A stretch of 16,956 bases of DNA, from positions 1 to 16,956 of the IMG/VR virus record IMGVR_UViG_2740892218_000013; one strand, given 5' to 3'. Position 1 is the stretch's first letter, and each line of letters begins with the position of its first letter. The stretch is from a virus (Duplodnaviria; Heunggongvirae; Uroviricota; Caudoviricetes). Of this stretch, positions 253-16,956 are shown piece by piece. A program made the translations under genes and the position numbers. The notes under the pieces were generated by a model that did no database searches, was not told the DNA's origin, and saw only the letters and a program-made list of their open reading frames with translations.

Positions 253-316
253 CGTCTTCTTCCTCGTACATTGAGCTATTCGGATCGCTCATCAGTTCTG
301 CGCAGTTATGGTCTGC
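245..316 (-). pseudogene. ninF: ninF 3' fragment (C-terminal ~20 codons), separated from its 5' part by the HNH gene
   Basis: Minus-strand frame ends ...[19 protein letters not shown] then TAA at 245-247, matching the recalled lambda NinF C-terminus. The frame stays open upstream to an ATG at 413-415 (57 codons) but that upstream part has no NinF similarity and overlaps the HNH ORF. Confidence 0.5.
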
Positions 317-812
317 CATGGTTTTCATGAAAACCCAGTTCTTTTTCTGCCCTCTTCCTTTCTGCAATAGCGTCAATGATGCTAGCAAATATTCCAAGAT
401 ATTTGGTGCGCCCATCTACGCATATATTCGCAATCCACTTACATCTCTCTTTATTGAAATATACTCCAGTCACTCCTGACGAATTGGTTATTTTTCTCTT
501 TTGGTTCTGTGCATTCTGTTGGTGTGTAACCAACCGAAGATTAGATAGCCTATTATCTGACCTTACTCCATTTATATGATCAATTTTATACCCTAATGGA
601 ATCTCACCATTATTTATCATCCATATAACGTGGTGAGCATAAGTAATTACACCATCGATAGTTAACATCCTATAACCATCACTCCTAATGTAACCAGCAA
701 CACTGCCAACCTTAACATTATTAGAAGGAGACACTTTCCATCTAAGTACACCTAAAACATCATCATATGATAATTTATTTCTTAATTCGTCTATGTTGCT
801 TATATTTCTCAT
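306..812 (-). CDS. HNH-family homing endonuclease with AP2-like DNA-binding domain (168 aa)
   Basis: ORF track protein contains DHINGVRSDNRLSNLRLVTHQQN (HNH motif) and GVTGVYFNKERCKWIANICVDGRTKYLGIF (AP2-like). The 5' half is markedly AT-rich compared with flanking nin genes. GGTGGAA precedes the ATG. Confidence 0.8.
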   Translation of the reverse strand: MRNISNIDELRNKLSYDDVLGVLRWKVSPSNNVKVGSVAGYIRSDGYRMLTIDGVITYAHHVIWMINNGEIPLGYKIDHINGVRSDNRLSNLRLVTHQQNAQNQKRKITNSSGVTGVYFNKERCKWIANICVDGRTKYLGIFASIIDAIAERKRAEKELGFHENHGRP

Positions 813-954: not shown

Positions 955-1133
955 CTTGTTTTCCTCGCACGTTCTCTAAGCCACCGGATATCCCACAGGT
1001 GAGCCGTGTAGTTGAAGGTTTTTACGTCAGATTCTTTTGGGATTGGCTTGCGTTTATTTCTGGAGCGTTTCGTTGGAAGGTATTTGCAGTTTTCGCAGAT
1101 GATGTCGGTGATACTTCGTCGCTGTCGTCTCAT
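951..1133 (-). CDS. ninE: NinE (60 aa)
   Basis: [23 protein letters not shown]... matches lambda NinE as recalled; start overlaps the ninB stop. Confidence 0.8.
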
Positions 1134-1540
1134 TCGTACCTCCTGTCGGTAAATCTGACACCCTGACCAATAGCCCAGGCTGTTGTGTACTCGATCAGAC
1201 TTGCCATACGCTTCACGCTCATCTGCGCGCTGCTTTCGCGAATGTTGACGTATTCGCCTTCAAGGCCGGGCAAAACATCAGCTTCCTGCTTTGTTGCCAC
1301 TGCATGACCGCTGATCAACAAAACCTTCCATTGTTCTGGTTTTAACCATTTATCGCGCCACTGAACTTGCCTAGCGATATCTGCGACCATCGCGTGAAAT
1401 TTTGCGTTCTGGTCAAGGTTGCGCTTGTAGTCAGTAATGCGGATGGTGACTGGCTTGTCTTTATCGAGTGGTGTTGCGAGGATGGCATTTATTGCAGCTT
1501 GCTGTTGTTGCTTAGTTCGGAGGAAGATTGTTTGCTTCAT
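1130..1540 (-). CDS. ninB: NinB recombination protein
   Basis: NinB-like sequence (…[27 protein letters not shown]…). I place the start at ATG 1538-1540 (MKQTIFL, GAGGT 4 nt upstream) rather than the track's TTG at 1558. Confidence 0.8.
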
Positions 1541-1547
1541 TGTCACC

Positions 1548-1754
1548 TCAACTAACAAAACGCCACGCCATTTTTGCTACAGCAACAGGCGCAACACCGA
1601 TAATCACCCACAGGAGAATGCTACCGAAAAGCACACCCACCAGGTCTTTACCTTCGCCTACCAACCGGACAAAACTGCTGGCAACAACAATGAACGTCGC
1701 CACCATCCACATAGCACCGAGAATCCTCAATGCAGAGAAAATTAACTCAGCCAC
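1548..1754 (-). CDS. Small hydrophobic (two-TM) membrane protein, 68 aa, GTG start
   Basis: Strong SD GGGGGAGGG 5-6 nt upstream of GTG; highly hydrophobic translation; sits between a terminator and ninB. Function unknown. Confidence 0.45.
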   Translation of the reverse strand: MAELIFSALRILGAMWMVATFIVVASSFVRLVGEGKDLVGVLFGSILLWVIIGVAPVAVAKMAWRFVS

Positions 1755-1826: not shown

Positions 1827-2096
1827 TCATTGCTTCATATCCCCTTCCATTTCATCAATGTCAACGTCATCAGGAAGATGGGAACAATACGCTGCTATAC
1901 CATGATGATTTATCTCATACCCTTTGAACGTTACCATCTGGCGCGTAATCTCAACTTCGTTCAGGAATCCGCCATCGCATAACTGCCTGGCTATTTTCGA
2001 TTTGGTCTGGATTATTGGTAGTGCCTGTTCTTTCAAAGCGTATGATATTTGTGCATCCCATGCCTTTTCGAGAATGGCTAATTGTTTTTTATTCAT
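1827..2096 (-). CDS. Hypothetical protein, 89 aa, translationally coupled to the helicase gene
   Basis: ORF start overlaps the helicase stop by 4 bp; ren/ninA-equivalent position; no motif recognised. Confidence 0.5.
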
Positions 2097-3469
2097 ACGT
2101 CAGCCCCTTGTGCATATCGTCTGCCACGCGCAGCAGGCGCATTTGATGCTGTGCAAATCTGTCTGGCTTCATCCTGGTCACATGCAACAAAGTGTCCGTT
2201 GCAGAACCGCTGGTAAACCGTACCAAGCGAGCCAAAACGGTTTTTCGTCACAATGATTTCAGCAAATGGTGCGGCGCTACTGTTCTCGTCATATACCGCT
2301 TCCCGATAGAGCATGATGATTGAGTCTGCGTCCTGTTCAATGCTTCCTGAATCACGCAAATCTGCGTTTGTCGGGCGTTTGTTTGGTCGCTTCTCAACAT
2401 CGCGCGAAAGCTGACTCAGGGAGATAACCGGTGTTTTCAGGTCTTTCGCCATCGCCTTCAGGCTTCCGGAGATGTGAGCAATTGCGAGGTCGTTGCGGTC
2501 TGCTTTCGGCTTCTCAATCAGGCCAAGATAATCCGCCATGATGAGTGACAGGTTTGGATTTTCCTGTTTGTGTCGTTCTGCGATTGAGCGTATTTCTTCG
2601 ACCGATAACCGCGAGGCATCGACTACCCACACATCCAAATCTGCAAGCTGACTCATGCCGTTAGCAACACGCGCCCAGCCTTCGTCATCCATCGATGCAG
2701 GATTTCGCAGTACGCTAACCGACATCCTCCCGGCGTTGGCAATGCTTCGCTCTGCAATCTGCAATGCGCTCATTTCCATTGAGAAAATCAATACCCCGCG
2801 CCGGACGTCAGAACCAGGAATAACGCGGCTTGCAACGCCTTCGGCAATCTTCAGCGCCAGTTCGGTTTTCCCCATACCAGGACGAGCAGCGATTATCACA
2901 AGGTCTTCTGCGTTCATCCCTCCGGTGATGGCATCAAGTTCTTCGATTCCGGTCTTCAGGGTATCTGACTCTTCTCCGTTCCTCAGACGCCTGTCAAGCG
3001 TGTCAGTGTAGTCAGTGATGATTTCCCCTAACCGTACAGGTTTAACCTCGTCACGGGGCTTTCTGATGGCTGAGAGACGTTTTACAAGTTCATCCATCGC
3101 CTGACTCGATGCGTCGATGGTTCCGCTCTGAATTGGTTCACGCATTTCATCCATGATTTCCAGCACCAGACGGCGGTGATAGTTATCCGCGACCATTCCG
3201 GCATATCCCTTCAGGTTTGCGGCACTCGGGCAGTTTTTGCTGGTCATCAGGATTGACGTGAAATGCTCCTCTCCGCACTCCTCGGCAACCATCAGCGCGT
3301 CGATTAGGTTTCTGTTTCGCGCCTGCTTGCGGATAACCTCGAAGGCCTTCCGGTAGAGCGGAATTGAAAACGCTTCCGGCTCCAGCGTTGCAAGAACGTC
3401 ACTGGCGGTTGGAGTTAATCCACCAATCAGCAGGCCGCCGATAACGCTCGCTTCGATATCCTGTCTCAT
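2093..3469 (-). CDS. Replicative DNA helicase, DnaB family (P22 gene 12 type), 458 aa
   Basis: Walker [13 protein letters not shown] and DnaB-like C-terminal domain; occupies the lambda P position, so replication uses its own helicase rather than a P-type loader. ATGA overlap with the O gene. Confidence 0.9.
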
Positions 3470-4296
3470 GCAATCCCCCTGTCTGCAAACTTCCCTTCCC
3501 GTACTCCCGTTAACGAATCTTCCCTCAGCAGGTAATCAAAATCTGCCGTCCAGCCCGTGTCGTTGTCTCCGAAGTAAAACGGCTTGGCCTGATGCACAAA
3601 CGCCCTGACATACGCTCTGAAACCGTCCACGTTTGGCGTTTTCAATTGCGGAATGATTTTCTTCAGGCGGCGTTTGCGTTTCTCGTTGACCGCAACAGCA
3701 TGTGGAAGTCTGTCACCGACTTCGGTGTTGTAGGCGTTCAGGAAGGATTCGTAGTCGATTCGTTCTGCCTTGCGACGTTCAGGTTTAACCTGCCCATCGC
3801 CGCCCCCATTAGGGGGTAAGGGGGTATTTGTATTTATTGTCTTTTGTATATTGTCTTTTGTGTTTGACTGATTCGGTAAATTGCTTTTTACCGATTTGGT
3901 GAAGGTTTGTTTTACCGAATTGGTAAATGTTTTACCGAATCCGTTAACTTTCGTTTTCCACTCGGAAATGTTTGTATTCATACCAACTTGACGCCCCACC
4001 TGAATGAGAACTCCCATTCTGATAAGCTCGTTTTTGGCGGTAGAGCATTTGGTTGGTGCCATGCCAGTGAGTTCAGCGAACTGTTCGTTTCCGATCCAAT
4101 CTATTTTTTTGTTGTAACCGTATGTCTTGCGCCACACAGCCATAACAATCAGTAACTGATGTAGAGTAAGCCCGGAAAGCATGGCGGCTTCTAACAGTGT
4201 GTTTGCAGTCCGAGTGTAGCCATCTTCGAGTTCTGCCACGCGATGCTCCACGACCTCCAGTTGAGGCCTGTAATCAGCTAACTTAACGACGCCCAT
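3466..4296 (-). CDS. Replication initiator, lambda O-like, 276 aa
   Basis: N-terminal region resembles lambda O (DDGY.R....LLEA...; WRKTYGYNK); the gene contains the ori iteron array. Confidence 0.85.
3830..3950. repeat. Replication origin inside the O gene: about four ~20-bp iterons plus adjacent AT-rich tract
   Basis: Repeats ACCGATTTGGTGAA / ACCGAATTGGTAAA / ACCGAATCCGTTAA plus inverted copy ATTCGGTAAATTG at 3871-3950; ATTGTCTTTTGT occurs twice in the AT-rich tract 3830-3866. Order matches lambda ori relative to O transcription. Confidence 0.6.
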
Positions 4297-4476: not shown

Positions 4477-4773
4477 TCAGAACTCCATCTGGATTTGTTC
4501 AGAACGCTCGGTTGCCGCCGGGCGTTTTTTATTGGTTAGTCCATCAAGCGCATACTTAAAAGCCCTGCTAATCGGACTGATGTCTGATGCCATTCCAAAA
4601 GCACACAGAACCGAAGCAATAAATCTCCAGTCCGTTCTGCTTATCTTCGATTCATGACAGCCAATCATCTTTGCCAGACCGCGCTGGGTAAGCGTTGACA
4701 GATTGATGAGTAAATCTGTTTCTGCGCGATCAACGTCGCGCTGTGATAGTTTGCTGTAACTTGTTTGTTCCAT
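4477..4773 (-). CDS. cII: Transcriptional activator CII
   Basis: C-terminus ...LTNKKRPAATERSEQIQMEF matches lambda CII; position between cro and O. Confidence 0.9.
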   Translation of the reverse strand: MEQTSYSKLSQRDVDRAETDLLINLSTLTQRGLAKMIGCHESKISRTDWRFIASVLCAFGMASDISPISRAFKYALDGLTNKKRPAATERSEQIQMEF

Positions 4774-4882: not shown

Positions 4883-5098
4883 TTAAGCGGCTTTGTGTTC
4901 CGGCGGGAACACGTCATCAAGACTGACTTTTGCGCCTAACTTGTTTAGGCACGCAACAAGAGCACGGCATGTTTTAAGGTCTGGGAAGCGACGACCAGAT
5001 TCCCAATGTCCGATAGCTCCCTGTGTGCATCCAACTGCCTTAGCAAGTGTTGTTTGAGAGATATTCAGTGACTCTCGATATTTTCGTAGGTTGCTCAT
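4883..5098 (-). CDS. cro: Cro-type repressor, 71 aa (HTH)
   Basis: HTH ISQTTLAKAVGCTQGAIGHWESG; ATG at 5096-5098 preceded by GGAGGG. The track's TTG at 5125 lies inside the pR -10 hexamer and is rejected. Confidence 0.8.
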   Translation of the reverse strand: MSNLRKYRESLNISQTTLAKAVGCTQGAIGHWESGRRFPDLKTCRALVACLNKLGAKVSLDDVFPPEHKAA

Positions 5099-5208
5099 AT
5101 GCCCTCCATAGTAACCATGAAGCAATAATACGATATGTACTTTTGAAATGCAAATAAAAATACATCTTGTGCATGGATGGTTTTAGTACAGAGCGTAATA
5201 ATAAGGAT
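5099..5208. promoter_or_regulatory. oR region with divergent pR and pRM
   Basis: pR on the minus strand: -35 TTGCAT (5148-5153), 17-bp spacer, -10 TATTAT (5125-5130). Inverted-repeat operator candidates ATGTACTTT / AAAATACAT also occur in the oL region. Confidence 0.7.
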
Positions 5209-5868
5209 ATGAAAATGAAATGGTATGAACTGGCTAGATCCAGAATGAAAGAGCTCGGCATAACTCAAGAGAAGTTAGCTGAAGAGCTTGGTATGACGCA
5301 GGGTGGAATTGGTCACTGGTTGCGCGGATCTCGTCATCCATCTCTTGACGAGATTGGTGTGGTGTTTAAATACCTTGGTATTGATAACGTCTCATTCAAC
5401 CACGACGGTACATTTTCACCTGTTGGCGAATACTCATCTGCCCCCGTTAAAAAACAATATGAGTACCCTGTTTTTTCTCATGTTCAGGCCGGGATGTTCT
5501 CGCCTGAGCTTAGAACCTTTACCAAAGGTGATGCGGAGAGATGGGTAAGCACAACCAAAAAAGCCAGTGATTGTGCATTCTGGCTTGAAGTTGAAGGTAA
5601 TTCCATGACCGCACCAACAGGCTACAAGCCAAGCTTTCCTGACGGGATGTTAATTCTGGTTGACCCTGAGCAGGCTGTCGAGCCAGGTGATTTCTGCATA
5701 GCCAGACTTGGGGGTGATGAGTTTACCTTCAAGAAACTGATCAGGGATAGCGGTCAGGTGTTCCTACAACCACTAAACCCGCAATATCCAATGATCCCAT
5801 GCAATGATAGCTGTTCCGTAGTAGGGAAAGTTATCGCCAGCCAGTGGCCTGAAGAGACATTTAGTTAA
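5209..5868 (+). CDS. cI: CI repressor: heterologous N-terminal HTH domain fused to a lambda-type C-terminal autocleavage domain
   Basis: C-terminal ~130 aa nearly identical to lambda CI as recalled (VQAGMF cleavage site, GNSM serine, FKKL lysine); N-terminal domain differs. Start could be ATG 5209 or 5215 (AAGGA upstream). Confidence 0.9.
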
Positions 5869-6221: not shown

Positions 6222-6530
6222 ATGACGGTAATCGTGTACGGAAAATCAACATTTGCAGGAAATGCCAAAACTCGCCGTCATGAGCGGCGCAGAAAGCTGG
6301 CTATCGAGCGTGATTCCATCTGCAACATCATCGATTCGATCTTCGGCATAGACAGTGAGGAAGCTGTTCAGGAAGAACCGAGAAAGCGTTTAAGTCTTTC
6401 TGAAAAAGCAGCATCACTCGGCAATATTCGTAACCAAAATACCGACGAATGCAGTGGAAGTATTTGCCTGCCAAACGTAGCCATTTACGCGGCAGGCTAC
6501 CGGAAATCAAAACAACTGACAGCGAGGTAA
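6222..6530 (+). CDS. N: Antitermination protein N, P22 gene 24 type, ~102 aa
   Basis: Arginine-rich motif GNAKTRRHERRRKLAIERD near the N-terminus (the P22 N boxB-binding peptide as recalled). ATG at 6222 with GAGGA upstream, chosen over the track's start at 6138. Confidence 0.85.
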   Translation: MTVIVYGKSTFAGNAKTRRHERRRKLAIERDSICNIIDSIFGIDSEEAVQEEPRKRLSLSEKAASLGNIRNQNTDECSGSICLPNVAIYAAGYRKSKQLTAR

Positions 6531-6532
6531 TT

Positions 6533-6985
6533 ATGGATTTAAGTAAATTAGAAAGCTCTTTAGAAGCATCAGTAAAAAATTTTATATCAGTAATTGATGA
6601 AAAAACTGAAGATATTAAGAAAGCAAATATTGTCGAACTTGTAAAAACAAGAGCCAGTACATTTGATCATCTTCCTGATGATGTCCGGTCAGCGGCAATT
6701 CACGTATATGTAACGGCACTAAGCAATATTGAACCCCCAATTGATGAAGAATCAAGAGATATTCAGAAAAAACGGTTCGAGATGTTAGCCAGCAACATTA
6801 TCGCTGGTTTCACACGGCTCTTAACAAAAAAGCCTGCCAGTGAGGCTGTTCGCCAGCAGGCTCAGGTAATGATTAATCAGGCAGAAACTATTTCACGTGA
6901 GCGAAAAGCATTTGATAAATCGGTTTCTGAACTTCCAACACCTCAACCGCAGCCGCTGAACCTTCCTTCTCAACAAACTGAATAA
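6533..6985 (+). CDS. Hypothetical protein, 150 aa, AT-rich, translationally coupled to N
   Basis: ATG at 6533 three nt after the N stop, with GAGGT SD; first ~200 bp strongly AT-rich; no motif recognised; 3' end overlaps a convergent ORF. Confidence 0.5.
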   Translation: MDLSKLESSLEASVKNFISVIDEKTEDIKKANIVELVKTRASTFDHLPDDVRSAAIHVYVTALSNIEPPIDEESRDIQKKRFEMLASNIIAGFTRLLTKKPASEAVRQQAQVMINQAETISRERKAFDKSVSELPTPQPQPLNLPSQQTE

Positions 6986-7764: not shown

Positions 7765-7880
7765 ATAAACAACAGAATAAATACTGCACTGTGTATTCAT
7801 TCCGACGAGTGAATACACGGAGCAATGTCGCTCGTAACTAAACAGGAGCCGACTTGTTCTGATTATTGGAAATCTTCTTT

Positions 7881-7907
7881 GCCCTCCAGTGTGAGGGCGA
7901 TTTTTTT
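7881..7907 (+). terminator. Rho-independent terminator immediately upstream of the 7920 gene's SD
   Basis: Stem GCCCTC (7881-7886) / GAGGGC (7893-7898), loop CAGTGT, then GATTTTTTT; GGAGGA SD follows directly. Confidence 0.55.
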
Positions 7908-7919
7908 GATGGAGGATAT

Positions 7920-8888
7920 ATGAGTGAAGTAACAGACTTAGTTGTTATTGAAAAAGCAAATGCAATGACTGTATTTCAGTCTGCAGACCAGATTGAAGAA
8001 ATCCTTCAAAAGGTTGAACGTGAAGTTATGTCCTTTGTGCCTGATATCACAACGGCAAAGGGCAGAAAGGAGATCGCTTCTCTGGCGTATAAAGTTGCGC
8101 AGACGAAAACATATCTCGATGGTCTTGGCAAAGACCTTGTTGCTGAACTGAAGGAAATTCCAAAGCTAATTGATGCCAACCGCAAGACAGTGCGCGATCG
8201 CCTTGATGAACTGAAAGCCAAGGCGCGCCAGCCTCTTACTGATTATGAGGAAGAACAGGCGCGGATTAAAGCCGAAGAAGAAGCTAAGGCAGCAGCTGAA
8301 GCTCTCGCAAAGCAAATTGAGTCTGACCATGAAATAGCTATTTTGATGGATCGCGAATTTGACCGCCAAAGAGAAGAGGCAAGACTCAAAGCGGAGCAGG
8401 AAAAGCGAGAGCATGAAGAACGATTAAAAAGAGAAGCTGAAGAGAAAGCCAGAGCAGAAGCCGAAGCAAAGGCAAAAGCCGAAATTGAAGCAGCAGCAAG
8501 GCGAGAAGCAGAAGCTAAGGCCGCAGCGGAACGTGCAGAGCGTGAACGCATTGAAGCCGAGCAACGAGCACAGCGCGAAGCAAAAGAGGCAGCAGAACGA
8601 GCTGAAAGAGAAAAGCAGGCAGCAATTGAAGCAGAACGCAGAAAAGCACAGGAGGAGGCTGAACGAATCCGTCGCGAGGCTGAAGCAAAAGAGCAAGCCA
8701 GAATAGCAGAAGAAAAAAGAATCAAGGACGAAGAAGATCGTAGAGCAAAGGATAAAGCTCACCGGAAAGAAGTAAATAACAAAATACTTGCTGACCTTAT
8801 CAAGGTTGGCGCATCAGAAGATGTTGCTAAAAATATCATAACAGCCATCGTAAAAGGCGAAGTATTCGCAACAAAAATAACCTACTAA
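7920..8888 (+). CDS. Coiled-coil protein, 322 aa, with long E/A/K/R-rich central repeat region
   Basis: ATG at 7920 after GGAGGA. Globular N-terminal ~110 aa, ~170 aa of EAKA/REAE-type repeats, short conserved C-terminal tail. Function unknown; sits just upstream of cIII. Confidence 0.65.
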   Translation: MSEVTDLVVIEKANAMTVFQSADQIEEILQKVEREVMSFVPDITTAKGRKEIASLAYKVAQTKTYLDGLGKDLVAELKEIPKLIDANRKTVRDRLDELKAKARQPLTDYEEEQARIKAEEEAKAAAEALAKQIESDHEIAILMDREFDRQREEARLKAEQEKREHEERLKREAEEKARAEAEAKAKAEIEAAARREAEAKAAAERAERERIEAEQRAQREAKEAAERAEREKQAAIEAERRKAQEEAERIRREAEAKEQARIAEEKRIKDEEDRRAKDKAHRKEVNNKILADLIKVGASEDVAKNIITAIVKGEVFATKITY

Positions 8889-8912: not shown

Positions 8913-9059
8913 ATGATTTACGCAATCGCGGGAGGCGCTCGCATGGGTGCCTTCCAATTAAATGAATCTTTACTTGAACGAATCACCCGTAAATTACGTG
9001 ACGGATGGAAACGACTCATCGACGTACTTAATCAGCCAGGATTTCCAAAAAATGGATAA
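8913..9059 (+). CDS. cIII: CIII (protects CII from FtsH), 48 aa
   Basis: Not in the ORF track. AAGGAA SD 6 nt upstream; translation MIYAIAGGARMGAFQLNESLLERITRKLRDGWKRLIDVLNQPGFPKNG matches the lambda CIII core (ESLLERITRKLRDGWKRLIDILNQPG) as recalled. Confidence 0.85.
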   Translation: MIYAIAGGARMGAFQLNESLLERITRKLRDGWKRLIDVLNQPGFPKNG

Positions 9060-9165
9060 AACACTTATGGCTATCCAGACTAAATTCACTATCGCCACTT
9101 TTATTGGCGATGAAAAGATGTTTCGTGAGGCCGTCGAGGCCTACAGGAAATGGAGGTCAAAATGA
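9052..9165 (+). CDS. kil: Kil-like host-killing protein, 37 aa
   Basis: Internal Met of the track ORF 8962-9165; MDKTLMAIQTKFTIATFIGDEKMFREAVEAYRKWRSK resembles the lambda Kil N-terminus as recalled; start overlaps the cIII stop. Confidence 0.6.
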   Translation: MDKTLMAIQTKFTIATFIGDEKMFREAVEAYRKWRSK

Positions 9166-9350
9166 TTCCGGTAGAACTGGCGAAAACTCCAGAGTTAAGT
9201 CGATTAAAAAGAGAATATCACATTGCTGAGGCTCGTTACTGGCGTAAAGCGGGAGATAAATCAAAGAAACAACTTTGTTTATGGCAGGCACAAAGAGAGC
9301 GCATGAATGAGCGAGAGTTTCTTTCCTCCCCATCCGAATTACCATTCTGA
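9162..9350 (+). CDS. Hypothetical protein, 62 aa
   Basis: ATG at 9162 with GGAGG 5 nt upstream; start overlaps the kil stop; in the lambda gam position but not Gam-like. Confidence 0.45.
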   Translation: MIPVELAKTPELSRLKREYHIAEARYWRKAGDKSKKQLCLWQAQRERMNEREFLSSPSELPF

Positions 9351-9358
9351 GGCAAATT

Positions 9359-10039
9359 ATGGGAACTGCAACATTAATACTCGGTGAGTCTGGCACCGGA
9401 AAATCAACCAGCATGAGAAATATCAATCCAGAGGAAGCAATACTTATAAAACCAATAGGCAAGCCGCTACCATTTAAATCAAAAGACTGGCTGGCATGGG
9501 ATGCCAGAGCAAAAAAAGGAACCGTAGTTACCACTGACAAATGGGATGTAATAGTTGCCGTAATTAAGCGTGCTCACGAATACGGGAAAAGAATCGTTAT
9601 TGTTGATGACTTCCAGTATGTGATGAGCAATGAGTTTATGCGCCGCTCAGAAGAAAAATCGTTTGATAAATTCACTGAGATAGGCCGTCACGCATGGGAG
9701 GTCATTAAGGCTGCACAAGATGCACCTGATGACCTGAGAGTCTATTTTCTTGCGCACACCGAAGAAACCCCTATGGGGCGCGTGAAAATGAAAACTATCG
9801 GCAAAATGCTGGACGAGAAGATCACTGTTGAAGGCATGTTTACTATAGTTCTTCGCACCCTTACCCGTGATGACCAGTTCTTTTTCACCACGAAAAACAA
9901 CGGTGCAGACACTGTTAAATCCCCAATGGGAATGTTTGATTCCAATGAGATTGATAACGATCTCTCTTTCGTCGATGCCACTGTTTGTGATTACTACGGC
10001 ATCAATAATGTTCATCAAATTAAGGAAAACGCCGCATGA
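9359..10039 (+). CDS. Sak4-type RecA-like ATPase (phage single-strand annealing recombinase family), 226 aa
   Basis: Walker A GESGTGKST near the N-terminus, Walker B IVIVDD, ~225 aa core-only size; lies where lambda has bet/exo. Confidence 0.7.
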   Translation: MGTATLILGESGTGKSTSMRNINPEEAILIKPIGKPLPFKSKDWLAWDARAKKGTVVTTDKWDVIVAVIKRAHEYGKRIVIVDDFQYVMSNEFMRRSEEKSFDKFTEIGRHAWEVIKAAQDAPDDLRVYFLAHTEETPMGRVKMKTIGKMLDEKITVEGMFTIVLRTLTRDDQFFFTTKNNGADTVKSPMGMFDSNEIDNDLSFVDATVCDYYGINNVHQIKENAA

Positions 10040-10623
10040 GCAACGTAATTTTTACTTATAACGAAGAAGCAGCACTGACCGCAGGGCAAGGTGGTTTTAT
10101 TAACGAAACTGGCGCTCATATCATTACCATTACTGAAGCAGAACTAAAGCAATCAGAAAAAGGCGCAAAATTTATTGAGTTTTCTGGCGAATCCGACGAC
10201 GGACGTAAAATACAATATCTTAGCGTTTGTGTTCAGAAAAATGACGGAACGGAAAACAAATTTGGCGCAAATGTCGTTCACGCCATGATGGGGTGTGCCG
10301 GTATTGGACAATTAACGCAACATATGGTTTCCGCCAGTAAATTTGTTGCACCTGAATTTCATGGAAAGAAAATCGGGTTAGTGCTCCAGAAAGTATTAAC
10401 CACAAACAAAAAGACTGGCGCAGACAGCTACCAGATGGAAATACGCATCCCGTTTATTGCACAAACAGGTCAAACCCTTAAAGAAAAGGCGGAAGGCAAG
10501 CAACCAGAAACTATCGCCAACATGGTTGCCAGCCTCAAAGATAAAGACAATCGCTCTAAAAACGTAAGCCAGAATCATGCAGATGATTATGGTTACAGCC
10601 AGAACGATTACCCTCCTTTCTGA
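10036..10623 (+). CDS. Putative ssDNA-binding protein partner of Sak4, 195 aa, with SSB-like acidic tail ending in Phe
   Basis: Translationally coupled to the Sak4-like gene (ATGA overlap). C-terminus ...HADDYGYSQNDYPPF resembles the SSB and T7 gp2.5 acidic tail with terminal aromatic residue. OB fold not verifiable by eye. Confidence 0.4.
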   Translation: MSNVIFTYNEEAALTAGQGGFINETGAHIITITEAELKQSEKGAKFIEFSGESDDGRKIQYLSVCVQKNDGTENKFGANVVHAMMGCAGIGQLTQHMVSASKFVAPEFHGKKIGLVLQKVLTTNKKTGADSYQMEIRIPFIAQTGQTLKEKAEGKQPETIANMVASLKDKDNRSKNVSQNHADDYGYSQNDYPPF

Positions 10624-10646
10624 TTACTGAAAATAAGGCTCCCATT

Positions 10647-10943
10647 ATGCCAGCGCCTCTGTATGGTGCGGATGACCCGCGCAACTGCTCCGGTAGCTCC
10701 AAGGCGGAGGTGCTGGAAAATATCAAAAACAATTTCGACGCGTTTCTTGCTCTGACGCCAGAAACAAAAGCAGAACGGATGTACCGACGCGATATACAAC
10801 TCGCGCTAAAACAGGAGAAGGACCGAACAAACGAAACAGCAATGAGACCGTTGCGAAAAGCGACAATAGACAAATTCCCTGAATATATCGACCCGCGCCT
10901 GCGTAATTACCGCTCACGCTATGGCGCTATCAGTAATGACTGA
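10647..10943 (+). CDS. Hypothetical protein, 98 aa
   Basis: ORF in operon orientation with an upstream purine-rich tract; no motif recognised. Confidence 0.45.
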
Positions 10944-10953
10944 GGAATTTACC

Positions 10954-11118
10954 ATGAGAGGACTTGCATACAATCCCGGCATTCTTCCGGCAGAAATGAT
11001 TATTCGCCAACGCGTAAAGCCAATGCCATCGAGAGAGGAATTGCTTAAGAGAAATTCTTTTCCATCAGTGAATCAAAACAAATATCTGAATGCGATGTGG
11101 CGGAGTGGGAAGAAATGA
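10954..11118 (+). CDS. Hypothetical small protein, 54 aa
   Basis: Internal ATG of track ORF 10921-11118, preceded by GAGGAA at 6-nt spacing. Confidence 0.3.
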
Positions 11119-11786
11119 AACAAATGTCACTAATTGAGATGGATGGTTTTCTGAAAGGTAAATGCATCCCAAGTGATTTAAAGGTTAACGAAACAAACGC
11201 TGAATATCTTGTCCGTAAGTTCGGTGAACTTGAATCAAAACTAGAAACGGCGTTGCGGGAGTGTCGTTCTGCTGGAATCACGATTGATAACCTTGAGGCC
11301 AAGTGCGCGGCGCTGGCAGCGGAGAATGCAAGACTGAAGGCCGGGGCTATGTATTTCTCATATGGCTCTGAATTTAGTTTCGAGTGTCACAAAACTGCTG
11401 AGGAGGCTATCGCTGCTGCTGAGGCTGCAATTGACGACTATAGAGGCGATGCTTGCGATGGATGGAGCGAAGAGGTCGAAAGCATTTGCTGGGGGGTAAT
11501 TATTCAGCAGGCAACCAAGGTCGGTGAACGCAAGAAGAGGAAATGCGACAGAGTATCACCATGGATTGAAAGAGTTTGTGATTATGAGCTTCGACCTAAT
11601 GTCGAAACCCCAGCCACCGATGCTTTCCTGGCTGAAGTACGAGCGCAGGGCGTGGAGATGTTTGCACAGAAATGTAACTCAAAATCCGAACAGTCATTTG
11701 CATCTGATATACGCGATAACTGGAAACTACTCGGTGAACATGCCACTGACTTTGCCGCAGAGCTTCGCAAAGGAGGCAACCAGTGA
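11097..11786 (+). CDS. Coiled-coil protein, possibly Ead/Ea22-like; start uncertain (11097 or 11115)
   Basis: Central coiled-coil ([39 protein letters not shown]); position between the recombination module and xis. Confidence 0.5.
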
Positions 11787-14271: not shown

Positions 14272-14490
14272 ATGTACTTGACACTTCAGGAGTGGAACGC
14301 ACGCCAGCGACGCCCAAGAAGCCTTGAAACAGTTCGTCGATGGGTTCGCGAATGCAGGATATTCCCACCTCCGGTTAAGGATGGAAGAGAGTATCTGTTC
14401 CACGAATCAGCGGTAAAGGTTGACTTAAATCGACCAGTAACAGGTAGCCTTTTGAAGAGGATCAGAAATGGGAAGAAGGCGAAGTCATGA
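14272..14490 (+). CDS. xis: Excisionase Xis, lambda type, 72 aa
   Basis: MYLTLQEWNARQRRPRSLETVRRWVRECRIFPPPVKDGREYLFHESAVKVDLNRPVTG.LLKRIRNGKKAKS is essentially lambda Xis as recalled; overlaps the int start by 23 bp as in lambda. Confidence 0.9.
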   Translation: MYLTLQEWNARQRRPRSLETVRRWVRECRIFPPPVKDGREYLFHESAVKVDLNRPVTGSLLKRIRNGKKAKS

Positions 14491-15538
14491 GCGCCGGGAT
14501 TTACCCCCTAACCTTTATATAAGAAACAATGGATATTACTGCTACAGGGACCCAAGGACGGGTAAAGAGTTTGGATTAGGCCGAGACAGGCGAATCGCAA
14601 TCACTGAAGCTATACAGGCCAACATTGAGTTATTTTCAGGACACAAACACAAGCCTCTGACAGCGAGAATCAACAGTGATAATTCTGTTACGTTACATTC
14701 ATGGCTTGATCGCTACGAAAAAATCCTCTCCAGCAGAGGGATCAAGCAGAAGACATTAATAAATTACATGAGCAAAATTAAAGCAATAAGGAAGGAGTTA
14801 CCTGATGTTCCACTTGAAGACATCACCACAAAAGAAATTGCGACAATGCTCAATGGATACATAGACGAGGGTAAGGCGGCATCAGCCAAGTTAATCAGAT
14901 CGACACTGAGCGATGCATTCCGAGAGGCTATAGCTGAAGGCCATATAACGACAAACCCGGTCACCGCCACTCGCGCAGCAAAATCAGAGGTAAGGAGATC
15001 AAGACTTACGGCTGACGAATACCTGAAAATTTATCAAGCAGCAGAATCATCACCATGTTGGCTCAGACTTGCAATGGAACTGGCTGTTGTTACCGGGCAG
15101 CGAGTTGGTGATTTATGCGAAATGAAGTGGTCTGATATCGTAGATGGCTATCTTTATGTCGAGCAAAGCAAAACAGGCGTAAAAATTGCCATTCCTACAA
15201 CATTGCATGTTGATGCTCTCGGGATATCAATGAAAGAAACACTTGATAAATGCAAAGAGATTCTTGGCGGAGAAACCATAATTGCATCTACTCGTCGTGA
15301 ACCGCTTTCATCCGGCACAGTATCAAGGTATTTTATGCGCGCACGAAAAGCATCAGGTCTTTCCTTCGAAGGGACTCCGCCTACCTTTCACGAGTTGCGC
15401 AGTTTGTCTGCAAGACTCTATGAGAAGCAGATAAGCGATAAGTTTGCTCAACATCTTCTCGGGCATAAGTCGGACACCATGGCATCACAGTATCGTGATG
15501 ACAGAGGCAGGGAGTGGGACAAAATTGAAATCAAATAA
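14468..15538 (+). CDS. int: Tyrosine integrase Int, lambda type, 356 aa
   Basis: MGRRRSHERRDLPPNLYIRNNGYYCYRDPRTGKEFGLGRDRRIAITEAIQANIELF... matches lambda Int as recalled; C-terminal catalytic motifs (HELRSL, LLGH, Y in SQYRD) present. Confidence 0.95.
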   Translation: MGRRRSHERRDLPPNLYIRNNGYYCYRDPRTGKEFGLGRDRRIAITEAIQANIELFSGHKHKPLTARINSDNSVTLHSWLDRYEKILSSRGIKQKTLINYMSKIKAIRKELPDVPLEDITTKEIATMLNGYIDEGKAASAKLIRSTLSDAFREAIAEGHITTNPVTATRAAKSEVRRSRLTADEYLKIYQAAESSPCWLRLAMELAVVTGQRVGDLCEMKWSDIVDGYLYVEQSKTGVKIAIPTTLHVDALGISMKETLDKCKEILGGETIIASTRREPLSSGTVSRYFMRARKASGLSFEGTPPTFHELRSLSARLYEKQISDKFAQHLLGHKSDTMASQYRDDRGREWDKIEIK

Positions 15539-15626
15539 TGATTTTATTTTGACTGATAGTGACCTGTTCGTTGCAACAAATTGATAAGTAATGCTTTTTT
15601 ATAAGGCCAACTTAGTATAAAAAAGC
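15539..15626. other. attL junction: P' arm with arm-type Int sites plus 15-bp core
   Basis: Core TTAGTATAAAAAAGC at 15612-15626 is the reverse complement of the lambda core GCTTTTTTATACTAA; arm-type site ATAGTGACCT at 15556-15565; flanking GCAGGCTTCA matches the bacterial attB arm. Confidence 0.85.
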
Positions 15627-15672: not shown

Positions 15673-16956
15673 GTGAACACATTTTCAGTTTCCCGTCTGG
15701 CGCTGGCACTGGCTTTTGGCGTGACGCTGACCGCCTGTAGCTCAACACCGCCCGATCAACGTCCTTCTGATCAAACCGCGCCTGGTACTTCTTCTCGCCC
15801 GATTCTGTCGGCAAAAGAAGCGCAGAATTTCGATGCTCAACACTATTTTTCATCCCTGACGCCTGGTGCTGCGGCGTGGAATCCTTCGCCGATTACCCTG
15901 CCTGCACAACCTGACTTTGTTGTCGGCCCGGCGGGTACTCCAGGTGTAACGCATACCACGATTCAGGCGGCGGTAGATGCGGCAATTATCAAGCGTACCA
16001 ATAAGCGCCAGTATATTGCCGTGATGCCTGGTGAGTATCAGGGAACGGTGTATGTCCCTGCCGCTCCGGGTGGAATCACCGTCTATGGTACAGGCGAAAA
16101 ACCGATTGATGTGAAGATTGGACTCTCCCTTGATGGCGGCATGAGCCCTGCCGACTGGCGTCATGACGTCAACCCGCGCGGCAAATATATGCCAGGTAAA
16201 CCAGCGTGGTATATGTACGATAGCTGCCAGAGCAAACGCAGCAACAGTATCGGCGTTCTGTGTTCTGCGGTCTTCTGGTCGCAAAACAATGGCCTGCAAC
16301 TGCAAAATCTGACCATCGAAAACACGCTGGGCGATAGCGTAGATGCAGGCAACCATCCGGCGGTAGCTCTGCGTACTGATGGCGATAAAGTACAGATCAA
16401 TAACGTCAATATTCTGGGTCGTCAGAATACTTTCTTTGTGACTAACAGTGGCGTGCAAAACCGTCTGGAAACCAACCGCCAGCCGCGTACGCTGGTGACT
16501 AACAGCTACATCGAAGGGGATGTGGATATCGTTTCTGGTCGCGGCGCAGTGGTGTTCGATAATACTGAATTCCGCGTGGTGAACTCCCGTACCCAGCAGG
16601 AAGCGTATGTGTTTGCACCAGCTACGCTGTCTAATATCTATTACGGTTTCCTGGCAGTAAATAGCCGATTTAATGCTTCTGGTGATGGCGTCGCGCAGTT
16701 GGGTCGCTCGCTGGATGTTGATGCCAATACCAACGGCCAGGTGGTGATTCGTGATAGCGCCATTAACGAAGGCTTTAACACAGCTAAACCGTGGGCTGAC
16801 GCGGTGATCTCTAATCGTCCGTTCGCGGGTAATACCGGAAACGCTGATGATAGCGACGATGTACAGCGCAATCTGAATGACACTAACTACAACCGCATGT
16901 GGGAGTACAACAACCGCGGCGTGGGTAGCAAAGTGGTTGCAGAGGCGAAGAAGTAA
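15673..16956 (+). CDS. ybhC: Host outer-membrane lipoprotein YbhC (pectinesterase-family), 427 aa
   Basis: GTG start; lipobox LTAC in signal peptide; sequence matches E. coli YbhC as recalled; known to flank attB-lambda on the gal side. Confidence 0.9.
   Translation: MNTFSVSRLALALAFGVTLTACSSTPPDQRPSDQTAPGTSSRPILSAKEAQNFDAQHYFSSLTPGAAAWNPSPITLPAQPDFVVGPAGTPGVTHTTIQAAVDAAIIKRTNKRQYIAVMPGEYQGTVYVPAAPGGITVYGTGEKPIDVKIGLSLDGGMSPADWRHDVNPRGKYMPGKPAWYMYDSCQSKRSNSIGVLCSAVFWSQNNGLQLQNLTIENTLGDSVDAGNHPAVALRTDGDKVQINNVNILGRQNTFFVTNSGVQNRLETNRQPRTLVTNSYIEGDVDIVSGRGAVVFDNTEFRVVNSRTQQEAYVFAPATLSNIYYGFLAVNSRFNASGDGVAQLGRSLDVDANTNGQVVIRDSAINEGFNTAKPWADAVISNRPFAGNTGNADDSDDVQRNLNDTNYNRMWEYNNRGVGSKVVAEAKK

Follow-up and report, generated by a model that had tools for sequence, protein, structure and literature searches.

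Evidence for an HK620-type Sak4-SSB-Abc2 recombination module in a lambdoid prophage

The DNA analysed here (the window; 16,956 nucleotides in all) comprises the left arm, immunity and replication regions of a lambdoid prophage, and the genes that follow cIII and kil in it are almost certainly a homologous-recombination ('Rec') module of the type found in HK620. Gene structure, near-identity to the HK620 proteins, modelled folds and a conserved pairing of genes were all observed directly for this DNA. The full Rec unit is hkaM-sak4-ssb-abc2 (9162-10943). An earlier note, made from the sequence alone, had proposed that a Sak4-type ATPase and an SSB-like partner replace the lambda Red genes at this locus; by position this is correct, but the replacement is the whole four-gene unit, including an adjacent Abc2 that the note had missed. 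The note was also right that lambda Red itself is missing, as a comparison of 28 ORFs of the window with PHROGs, and of 10 of them also with Pfam, returned no match to the exo, bet or gam families.

Gene layout and match to HK620

Both cIII and kil, which the earlier note had called lambda-like and which match the corresponding lambda families of Pfam, are immediately upstream of the Rec module, and the neighbouring cIII is a marker of pL operon context. The features of this part of the window are the following.

8913-9059, plus strand: cIII (Pfam Lambda_CIII, 1.6e-23; PHROG 550; same place in HK620 and APC_JM3.2)
9052-9165, plus strand: kil, in the 37-aa form annotated in HK620 and APC_JM3.2 (Pfam Lambda_Kil, 4e-21; coordinates taken over from the APC_JM3.2 annotation)
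9162-9350, plus strand: hkaM, 62-aa orphan, first gene of the Rec module (61/62 identical to HK620 HkaM; PHROG 1723)
9359-10039, plus strand: sak4 (hkaL), 226 aa, ATG start, predicted core-only RecA/Rad51-like ATPase
9383-9409, plus strand: Walker A motif GESGTGKST, sak4 residues 9-17, read from the sequence
9593-9610, plus strand: Walker B motif IVIVDD, sak4 residues 79-84, read from the sequence
10036-10039, plus strand: ATGA stop/start overlap of sak4 and ssb, read from the sequence (HK620, at 5065-5068, and APC_JM3.2 are annotated with an identical overlap of 4 nt)
10036-10623, plus strand: ssb (hkaK; 'SSB-HK620', 'SSB-2' or DUF669), 195 aa, ATG start, non-canonical SSB
10603-10620, plus strand: C-terminal NDYPPF hexapeptide of SSB, putative Sak4-recruiting tail (identical to the HK620 tail)
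10647-10943, plus strand: abc2, anti-RecBCD gene, 98 aa, diverged allele, last in the module (Pfam PF11043; PHROG 656)

The junction of sak4 and ssb reads gccgcATGAgc, with the ssb ATG at 10036-10038 and the sak4 TGA at 10037-10039, which fits the translational coupling that the earlier note had proposed for the 195-aa protein. An AAGGA Shine-Dalgarno-like element is present 9 nt upstream of the ssb ATG, and translation of the two genes is probably coupled. The last gene, abc2, starts 24 nt 3' of ssb. Antisense ORFs within the interval (for example 9647-10018 on the minus strand, 123 aa) were discarded as spurious; annotated relatives all carry just two plus-strand genes here.

Positions 8964-11327 of the window are colinear with positions 6140-3777 of HK620 (NC_002730), forming a nucleotide block of 2.36 kb, and the gene order cIII-kil-hkaM-sak4-ssb-abc2 is equal to that of the HK620 annotation. 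Nucleotide identity to HK620 is 97.9% in sak4, 98.5% in ssb, 100% in the intergenic spacer and 98.8% in the next gene (DUF2737), but only 72.4% in abc2. In a BLASTP comparison, Sak4 was identical to its HK620 counterpart HkaL (NP_112045) at 225 of 226 residues, with D43 here and E in HK620; similarly, SSB was identical to HkaK (NP_112044) at 194 of 195 residues, with E153 here and V in HK620. Thus, with near-identical proteins in a colinear block and a diverged abc2, the locus is the recombination module of HK620 in which abc2 has been exchanged for another allele. The HK620 module, hkaM-hkaL(sak4)-hkaK(ssb)-hkaJ(abc2), shares with it the order of genes, the ATGA overlap, the NDYPPF tail and a place after cIII and kil in the pL operon, and differs in abc2 and in the two single substitutions. 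The elements that carry the two modules are also different, as the window belongs to a prophage with a lambda-type integrase and att-lambda beside ybhC; HK620, a P22-like podovirus, has an integrase of another kind. The HK620 Rec module has been catalogued as a reference type among lambdoid Rec modules (PMC12315714).

Abc2 of the window matches Pfam PF11043 (Anti-RecBCD_p2) over profile positions 1-97 of 97 (121.7 bits, 1.5e-35) and PHROG 656 (5e-45), and is identical to HkaJ of HK620 at 60 of 98 residues (61%). With flanks that are 98-100% identical in nucleotide sequence, abc2 is a clean, gene-sized cassette swap within an otherwise HK620-type Rec module. Its product is probably the functional counterpart of Gam in this prophage and, by hijacking RecBCD, would cover the functions of both Gam and Exo. 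At the other end of the module, HkaM is labelled 'recombinase' by PHROG 1723 and by the RefSeq record of HK620; the HK620 study called it an orphan and found it dispensable for recombineering with sak4 and ssb (PMC5928155). The label looks like a positional annotation only. It is conceivable, if a long shot, that the swapped abc2 and/or the always-adjacent HkaM could adapt the module to particular variants of host RecBCD or to defences by which the host senses phage recombinases. There is a precedent in staphylococci, in which the SaPI2 protein Stl2 has Sak4 as its target. HkaM would in that case be a third functional component that had gone unrecognised.

The module can also be compared with two better known systems. 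Lambda Red (gam-bet-exo) likewise follows kil in the pL operon and has the same overall task, which is to make and anneal ssDNA and to neutralise RecBCD. However, there is no kinship between the two in sequence or fold: the annealase Beta is Rad52-like and works independently of ATP, whereas Sak4 would be an ATP-dependent protein with a RecA core. Furthermore, no exonuclease is encoded in the module, and RecBCD would be modified by Abc2 here but is blocked by Gam in lambda. In oligonucleotide recombineering, Sak4 and its SSB have been found comparable to Red-beta at some loci (PMC5928155). The Rec module of P22 (arf-erf-abc1-abc2) has the same four-gene layout with an abc2 homologue in last place, but has Erf, a Rad52-like protein, in place of Sak4 and Abc1 in place of SSB; HkaM is not homologous to Arf.

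Family and predicted fold of Sak4 and SSB

The ATPase had been described in the earlier note as a core-only, RecA-like protein of about 225 aa. The ORF encodes 226 aa, both of the named Walker motifs are present, and the Walker residues G9, S11, G12, G14, K15, D83 and D84 are invariant in an alignment of 40 homologues. In profile searches, Sak4 matches PHROG 2872, 'Sak4-like ssDNA annealing protein', over residues 1-220 (3.9e-108), and it exceeds the gathering cutoff of Pfam AAA_24 (30.2 bits against 27); weak side-matches in Pfam are to AAA_22, ABC_tran and Zot. NCBIfam gave no useful match for any of the four module proteins. As sequence searches of the PDB returned no significant match for either Sak4 or SSB, the question of fold was taken to structure prediction for both.

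The predicted structure of Sak4 has a mean pLDDT of 88 and a pTM of 0.88. Its best structural match is the solved Sak4 of staphylococcal phage 52A (PDB 8rc5), the target of the SaPI2 repressor Stl2 (PMC11846896); the E. coli protein is not known to be such a target, and the two sequences are only 13% identical when aligned by structure. The next matches are RAD51D (13.5), RecA (13.3), RAD51C (12.9), KaiC (12.1), XRCC3 (12.1) and RadB (11.3). These matches indicate that Sak4 is a RecA/Rad51-paralog-like, core-only protein, with no extra N- or C-terminal DNA-binding domains in the model, and they leave no room for an unrelated P-loop family, an outcome that the earlier note had considered. Sak4 of HK620 has been shown to bind and anneal ssDNA in an ATP-dependent manner in vitro (PMC5928155), and we can say with high confidence that Sak4 of the window should likewise be an ATP-dependent ssDNA annealase, as this is carried over from a protein that differs by one residue. 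A part for the ATPase or its neighbours in a defence system was considered and rejected; the only PADLOC match that reached 1e-4 was to mad8 (2.3e-5) and was restricted to the P-loop.

The partner protein matches PHROG 743, 'single strand DNA binding protein', in a profile search (1.8e-66). Its predicted structure (mean pLDDT 80, pTM 0.75) is beta-rich with one long helix and, in structure comparison, matches OB-fold structures and has an OB-type beta-barrel core, which is what the earlier note had expected for 10036-10623. There was no sequence match to canonical bacterial SSB, either in the Pfam SSB profile or among solved SSB chains, and hmmscan against Pfam-A found no family at E <= 0.1. 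The DUF669 label, a name given to the SSB cluster by NCBI/UniRef, was therefore not reproduced in this search, and the precomputed Pfam field is empty in all 120 listed homologues. The model thus points to an OB fold that is only remotely related to that of canonical SSB. This accords with a split in the literature, in which the SSB of HK620 has been called a distant SSB homologue (PMC5928155) and HK620-type SSB has been said not to be homologous to bacterial SSB (PMC12315714); binding to ssDNA is reported in both studies.

The SSB sequence ends ...DDYGYSQNDYPPF, and its last 19 residues include three acidic, four aromatic and no basic residues. Residues 177-195 have a pLDDT below 50 in the model and are predicted to be disordered. 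Although this tail is variable, the terminal Phe is retained in nearly all of the 35 homologues aligned, mostly as PF. Similarly, bacterial SSB, T7 gp2.5 and T4 gp32 have a disordered, acidic C-terminus with an aromatic or Pro-Phe end that recruits partners, and the NDYPPF tail of the HK620-type SSB has been compared with the DDDIPF tail of E. coli SSB (PMC5928155).

The pairing of the two genes is conserved well beyond HK620. Directly 3' of the sak4 homologue, both Pseudomonas phage phiPSA1 and Aeromonas phage 4_D05 encode a PHROG 743 protein, while in Roseburia phage Jekyll the gene after sak4 is annotated as SSB but falls in the uncharacterised PHROG 18107. The partner proteins of these three phages all have acidic tails, ending ...IPFD, ...LPF or ...LPFN. 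A cognate ssb has been reported to adjoin approximately 80% of sak4 genes (PMC5928155). DNA of sak4-ssb was found in 195 of 5426 complete E. coli genomes, and the 2.1 kb at 8900-11000 matches 346 phage records (64 of them with at least 80% coverage), which include JEP4, APC_JM3.2, TL-2011a and many Stx1a- and Stx2a-converting phages. The protein clusters have 1036 member sequences for Sak4 and 1407 for SSB, and there are at least 7981 Sak4 homologues with E <= 0.001 among the 8000 candidates scored. The Sak4-SSB pair is an already known system and the published model for core-only RecA annealases; it is already in use as a recombineering tool, and the locus adds nothing new to biology. Annotation, by comparison, is behind the literature: RefSeq still names Sak4 an 'ATP-binding protein' and SSB a 'hypothetical protein' or DUF669 in Stx-converting phages and E. 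coli prophages alike, hundreds in all.

Proposed mechanism and its alternatives

If the HK620 mechanism applies, transcription from pL would reach the Rec module once it had passed cIII and kil, in the place that gam-bet-exo have in lambda. Abc2 would bind host RecBCD and change it from a destructive nuclease to a resection activity that yields ssDNA; a dedicated exonuclease would be unnecessary because the Abc2-modified RecBCD would itself generate the ssDNA. The 195-aa SSB, with its non-canonical OB fold, would coat phage ssDNA, and its disordered NDYPPF tail would recruit Sak4 (226 aa, RecA/Rad51 core only) onto the SSB-ssDNA complex. Sak4 would then anneal complementary strands in an ATP-dependent reaction. 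Since Sak4 and SSB each have a single substitution relative to the HK620 proteins, and SSB has an unchanged tail, this mechanism can be transferred with high confidence. The prophage itself is presumed to be functional.

The recombineering and tail-removal experiments that the earlier note had proposed are already published for the HK620 pair (Hutinet et al. 2018, PMC5928155). Sak4 of HK620 is weak when alone, and co-expression of SSB restores the recombineering of the whole four-gene module. Deletion of NDYPPF caused a 10-fold decrease in recombineering and abolished the binding of Sak4 to SSB-coated ssDNA; the recruiting tail with a terminal Phe, which the earlier note had recognised by its likeness to SSB tails, is thus identical to one that is required in HK620. 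Stimulation of Sak4 annealing by its cognate SSB, as the note had mentioned, is also part of that work, in which Abc2 is taken to convert RecBCD into a 5'-3' resection activity (PMC5928155).

Scans for regulatory signals agree with transcription from pL. Between 8700 and 11300, neither strand has a sigma-70 promoter-like site, whereas 5.0 +/- 2.2 would be expected from shuffles; this is consistent with one long operon that is driven by pL without interruption, and it suggests that promoters inside the operon have been selected against. Terminator-like matches in the same interval were dismissed as noise, being mostly antisense and within genes, and exceeding what shuffles would give by only about 2 sd. 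A search of the whole window against Rfam gave no RNA family at threshold.

Among the alternatives, the one that survives best is that the main role of the module is in replication (in the switch from theta to rolling-circle replication, or in fork restart during lytic growth) and not in recombination as such. Lambdoid Rec modules have been linked to the theta-to-sigma switch and to growth that depends on recombination (PMC12315714), and the module is in the early left operon, co-expressed with replication functions. We regard this as possible but on balance doubtful; moreover, it concerns biological role and not molecular mechanism, and is compatible with an HK620-type annealing module.

It is a good deal less probable that Sak4 acts mainly as a filament-forming strand-exchange recombinase, in effect a minimal RecA/Rad51, with SSB as a second DNA-binding site. 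The predicted RecA/Rad51-paralog fold would suit such an activity, filaments of phage 52A Sak4 are seen by cryo-EM in its complex with Stl2 (PMC11846896), and sak4 and ssb of HK620 raise post-conjugational recombination 20-fold over the spontaneous level (PMC5928155). However, that in vivo recombination is 500-fold below that of RecA, and HK620 Sak4, with or without SSB, neither catalysed strand exchange in vitro nor stimulated RecA (PMC5928155); Sak4 also has no counterpart of the C-terminal DNA-binding domain of RecA. Finally, a generic P-loop NTPase (a helicase loader, a Zot-like protein or a defence ATPase) next to an unrelated DUF protein with an SSB-like tail by chance, as might be read from the weak Pfam side-matches and the P-loop-only mad8 match, has next to no probability and is already refuted by the 99.6% and 99.5% identity to assayed HK620 proteins and by a solved Sak4 as best structural match of the ATPase, to which the OB-fold matches of the partner and the conservation of the gene pairing across phyla can be added.

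Prophage context

The HK620-type Rec module belongs to a plus-strand series of genes which, after N, runs through accessory genes, cIII, kil, the Rec module and ead/Ea22-type genes to xis and integrase. Outside the Rec module, the main features of the window are as follows.

306-812, minus strand: HNH endonuclease (PHROG 99, 8e-70)
1130-1558, minus strand: NinB/Orf mediator (PHROG 72, 7.6e-53)
2093-3469, minus strand: DnaB-like P
3466-4296, minus strand: O
4477-4773, minus strand: cII
4883-5125, minus strand: cro-like HTH protein
5167-5868, plus strand: cI
6222-6530, plus strand: N
14272-14490, plus strand: xis
14468-15538, plus strand: lambda-type integrase, with Arm-DNA-bind and Phage_integrase domains
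15612-15626: lambda att core, 15 bp, exact (GCTTTTTTATACTAA)
15673-16956: host gene ybhC, downstream of the att core

The att core between integrase and ybhC is the end of the prophage at the classical att-lambda site, and the window therefore spans the junction of prophage and chromosome. Coverage of the 16.9-kb window is below 80% in every complete E. coli genome and phage record searched, and the prophage is a mosaic. Its nin region holds the HNH endonuclease and a second recombination function, Orf, so that the prophage carries both Sak4-SSB-Abc2 and Orf.

Two of the genes between N and cIII deserve mention. Directly after N is a gene of 150 aa (6533-6985, within the ORF 6449-6985), for which there was no match in PHROG, Pfam or PADLOC. 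Of 5426 complete E. coli genomes, just 2 cover at least 80% of the 1.2 kb around it, and in these the gene is annotated as 'hypothetical protein'. The gene is accessory and rare, and its position is typical of a moron. Further downstream, 7920-8888 (ORF 7866-8888) has a strong AT skew (0.41), shares only approximately 130 nt with HK620 and encodes a highly charged coiled-coil protein of about 322 aa that is rich in Ala, Glu, Lys and Arg. This protein belongs to PHROG 1376 (unknown function) and is annotated elsewhere as a 'TolA-like cell envelope biogenesis protein'.
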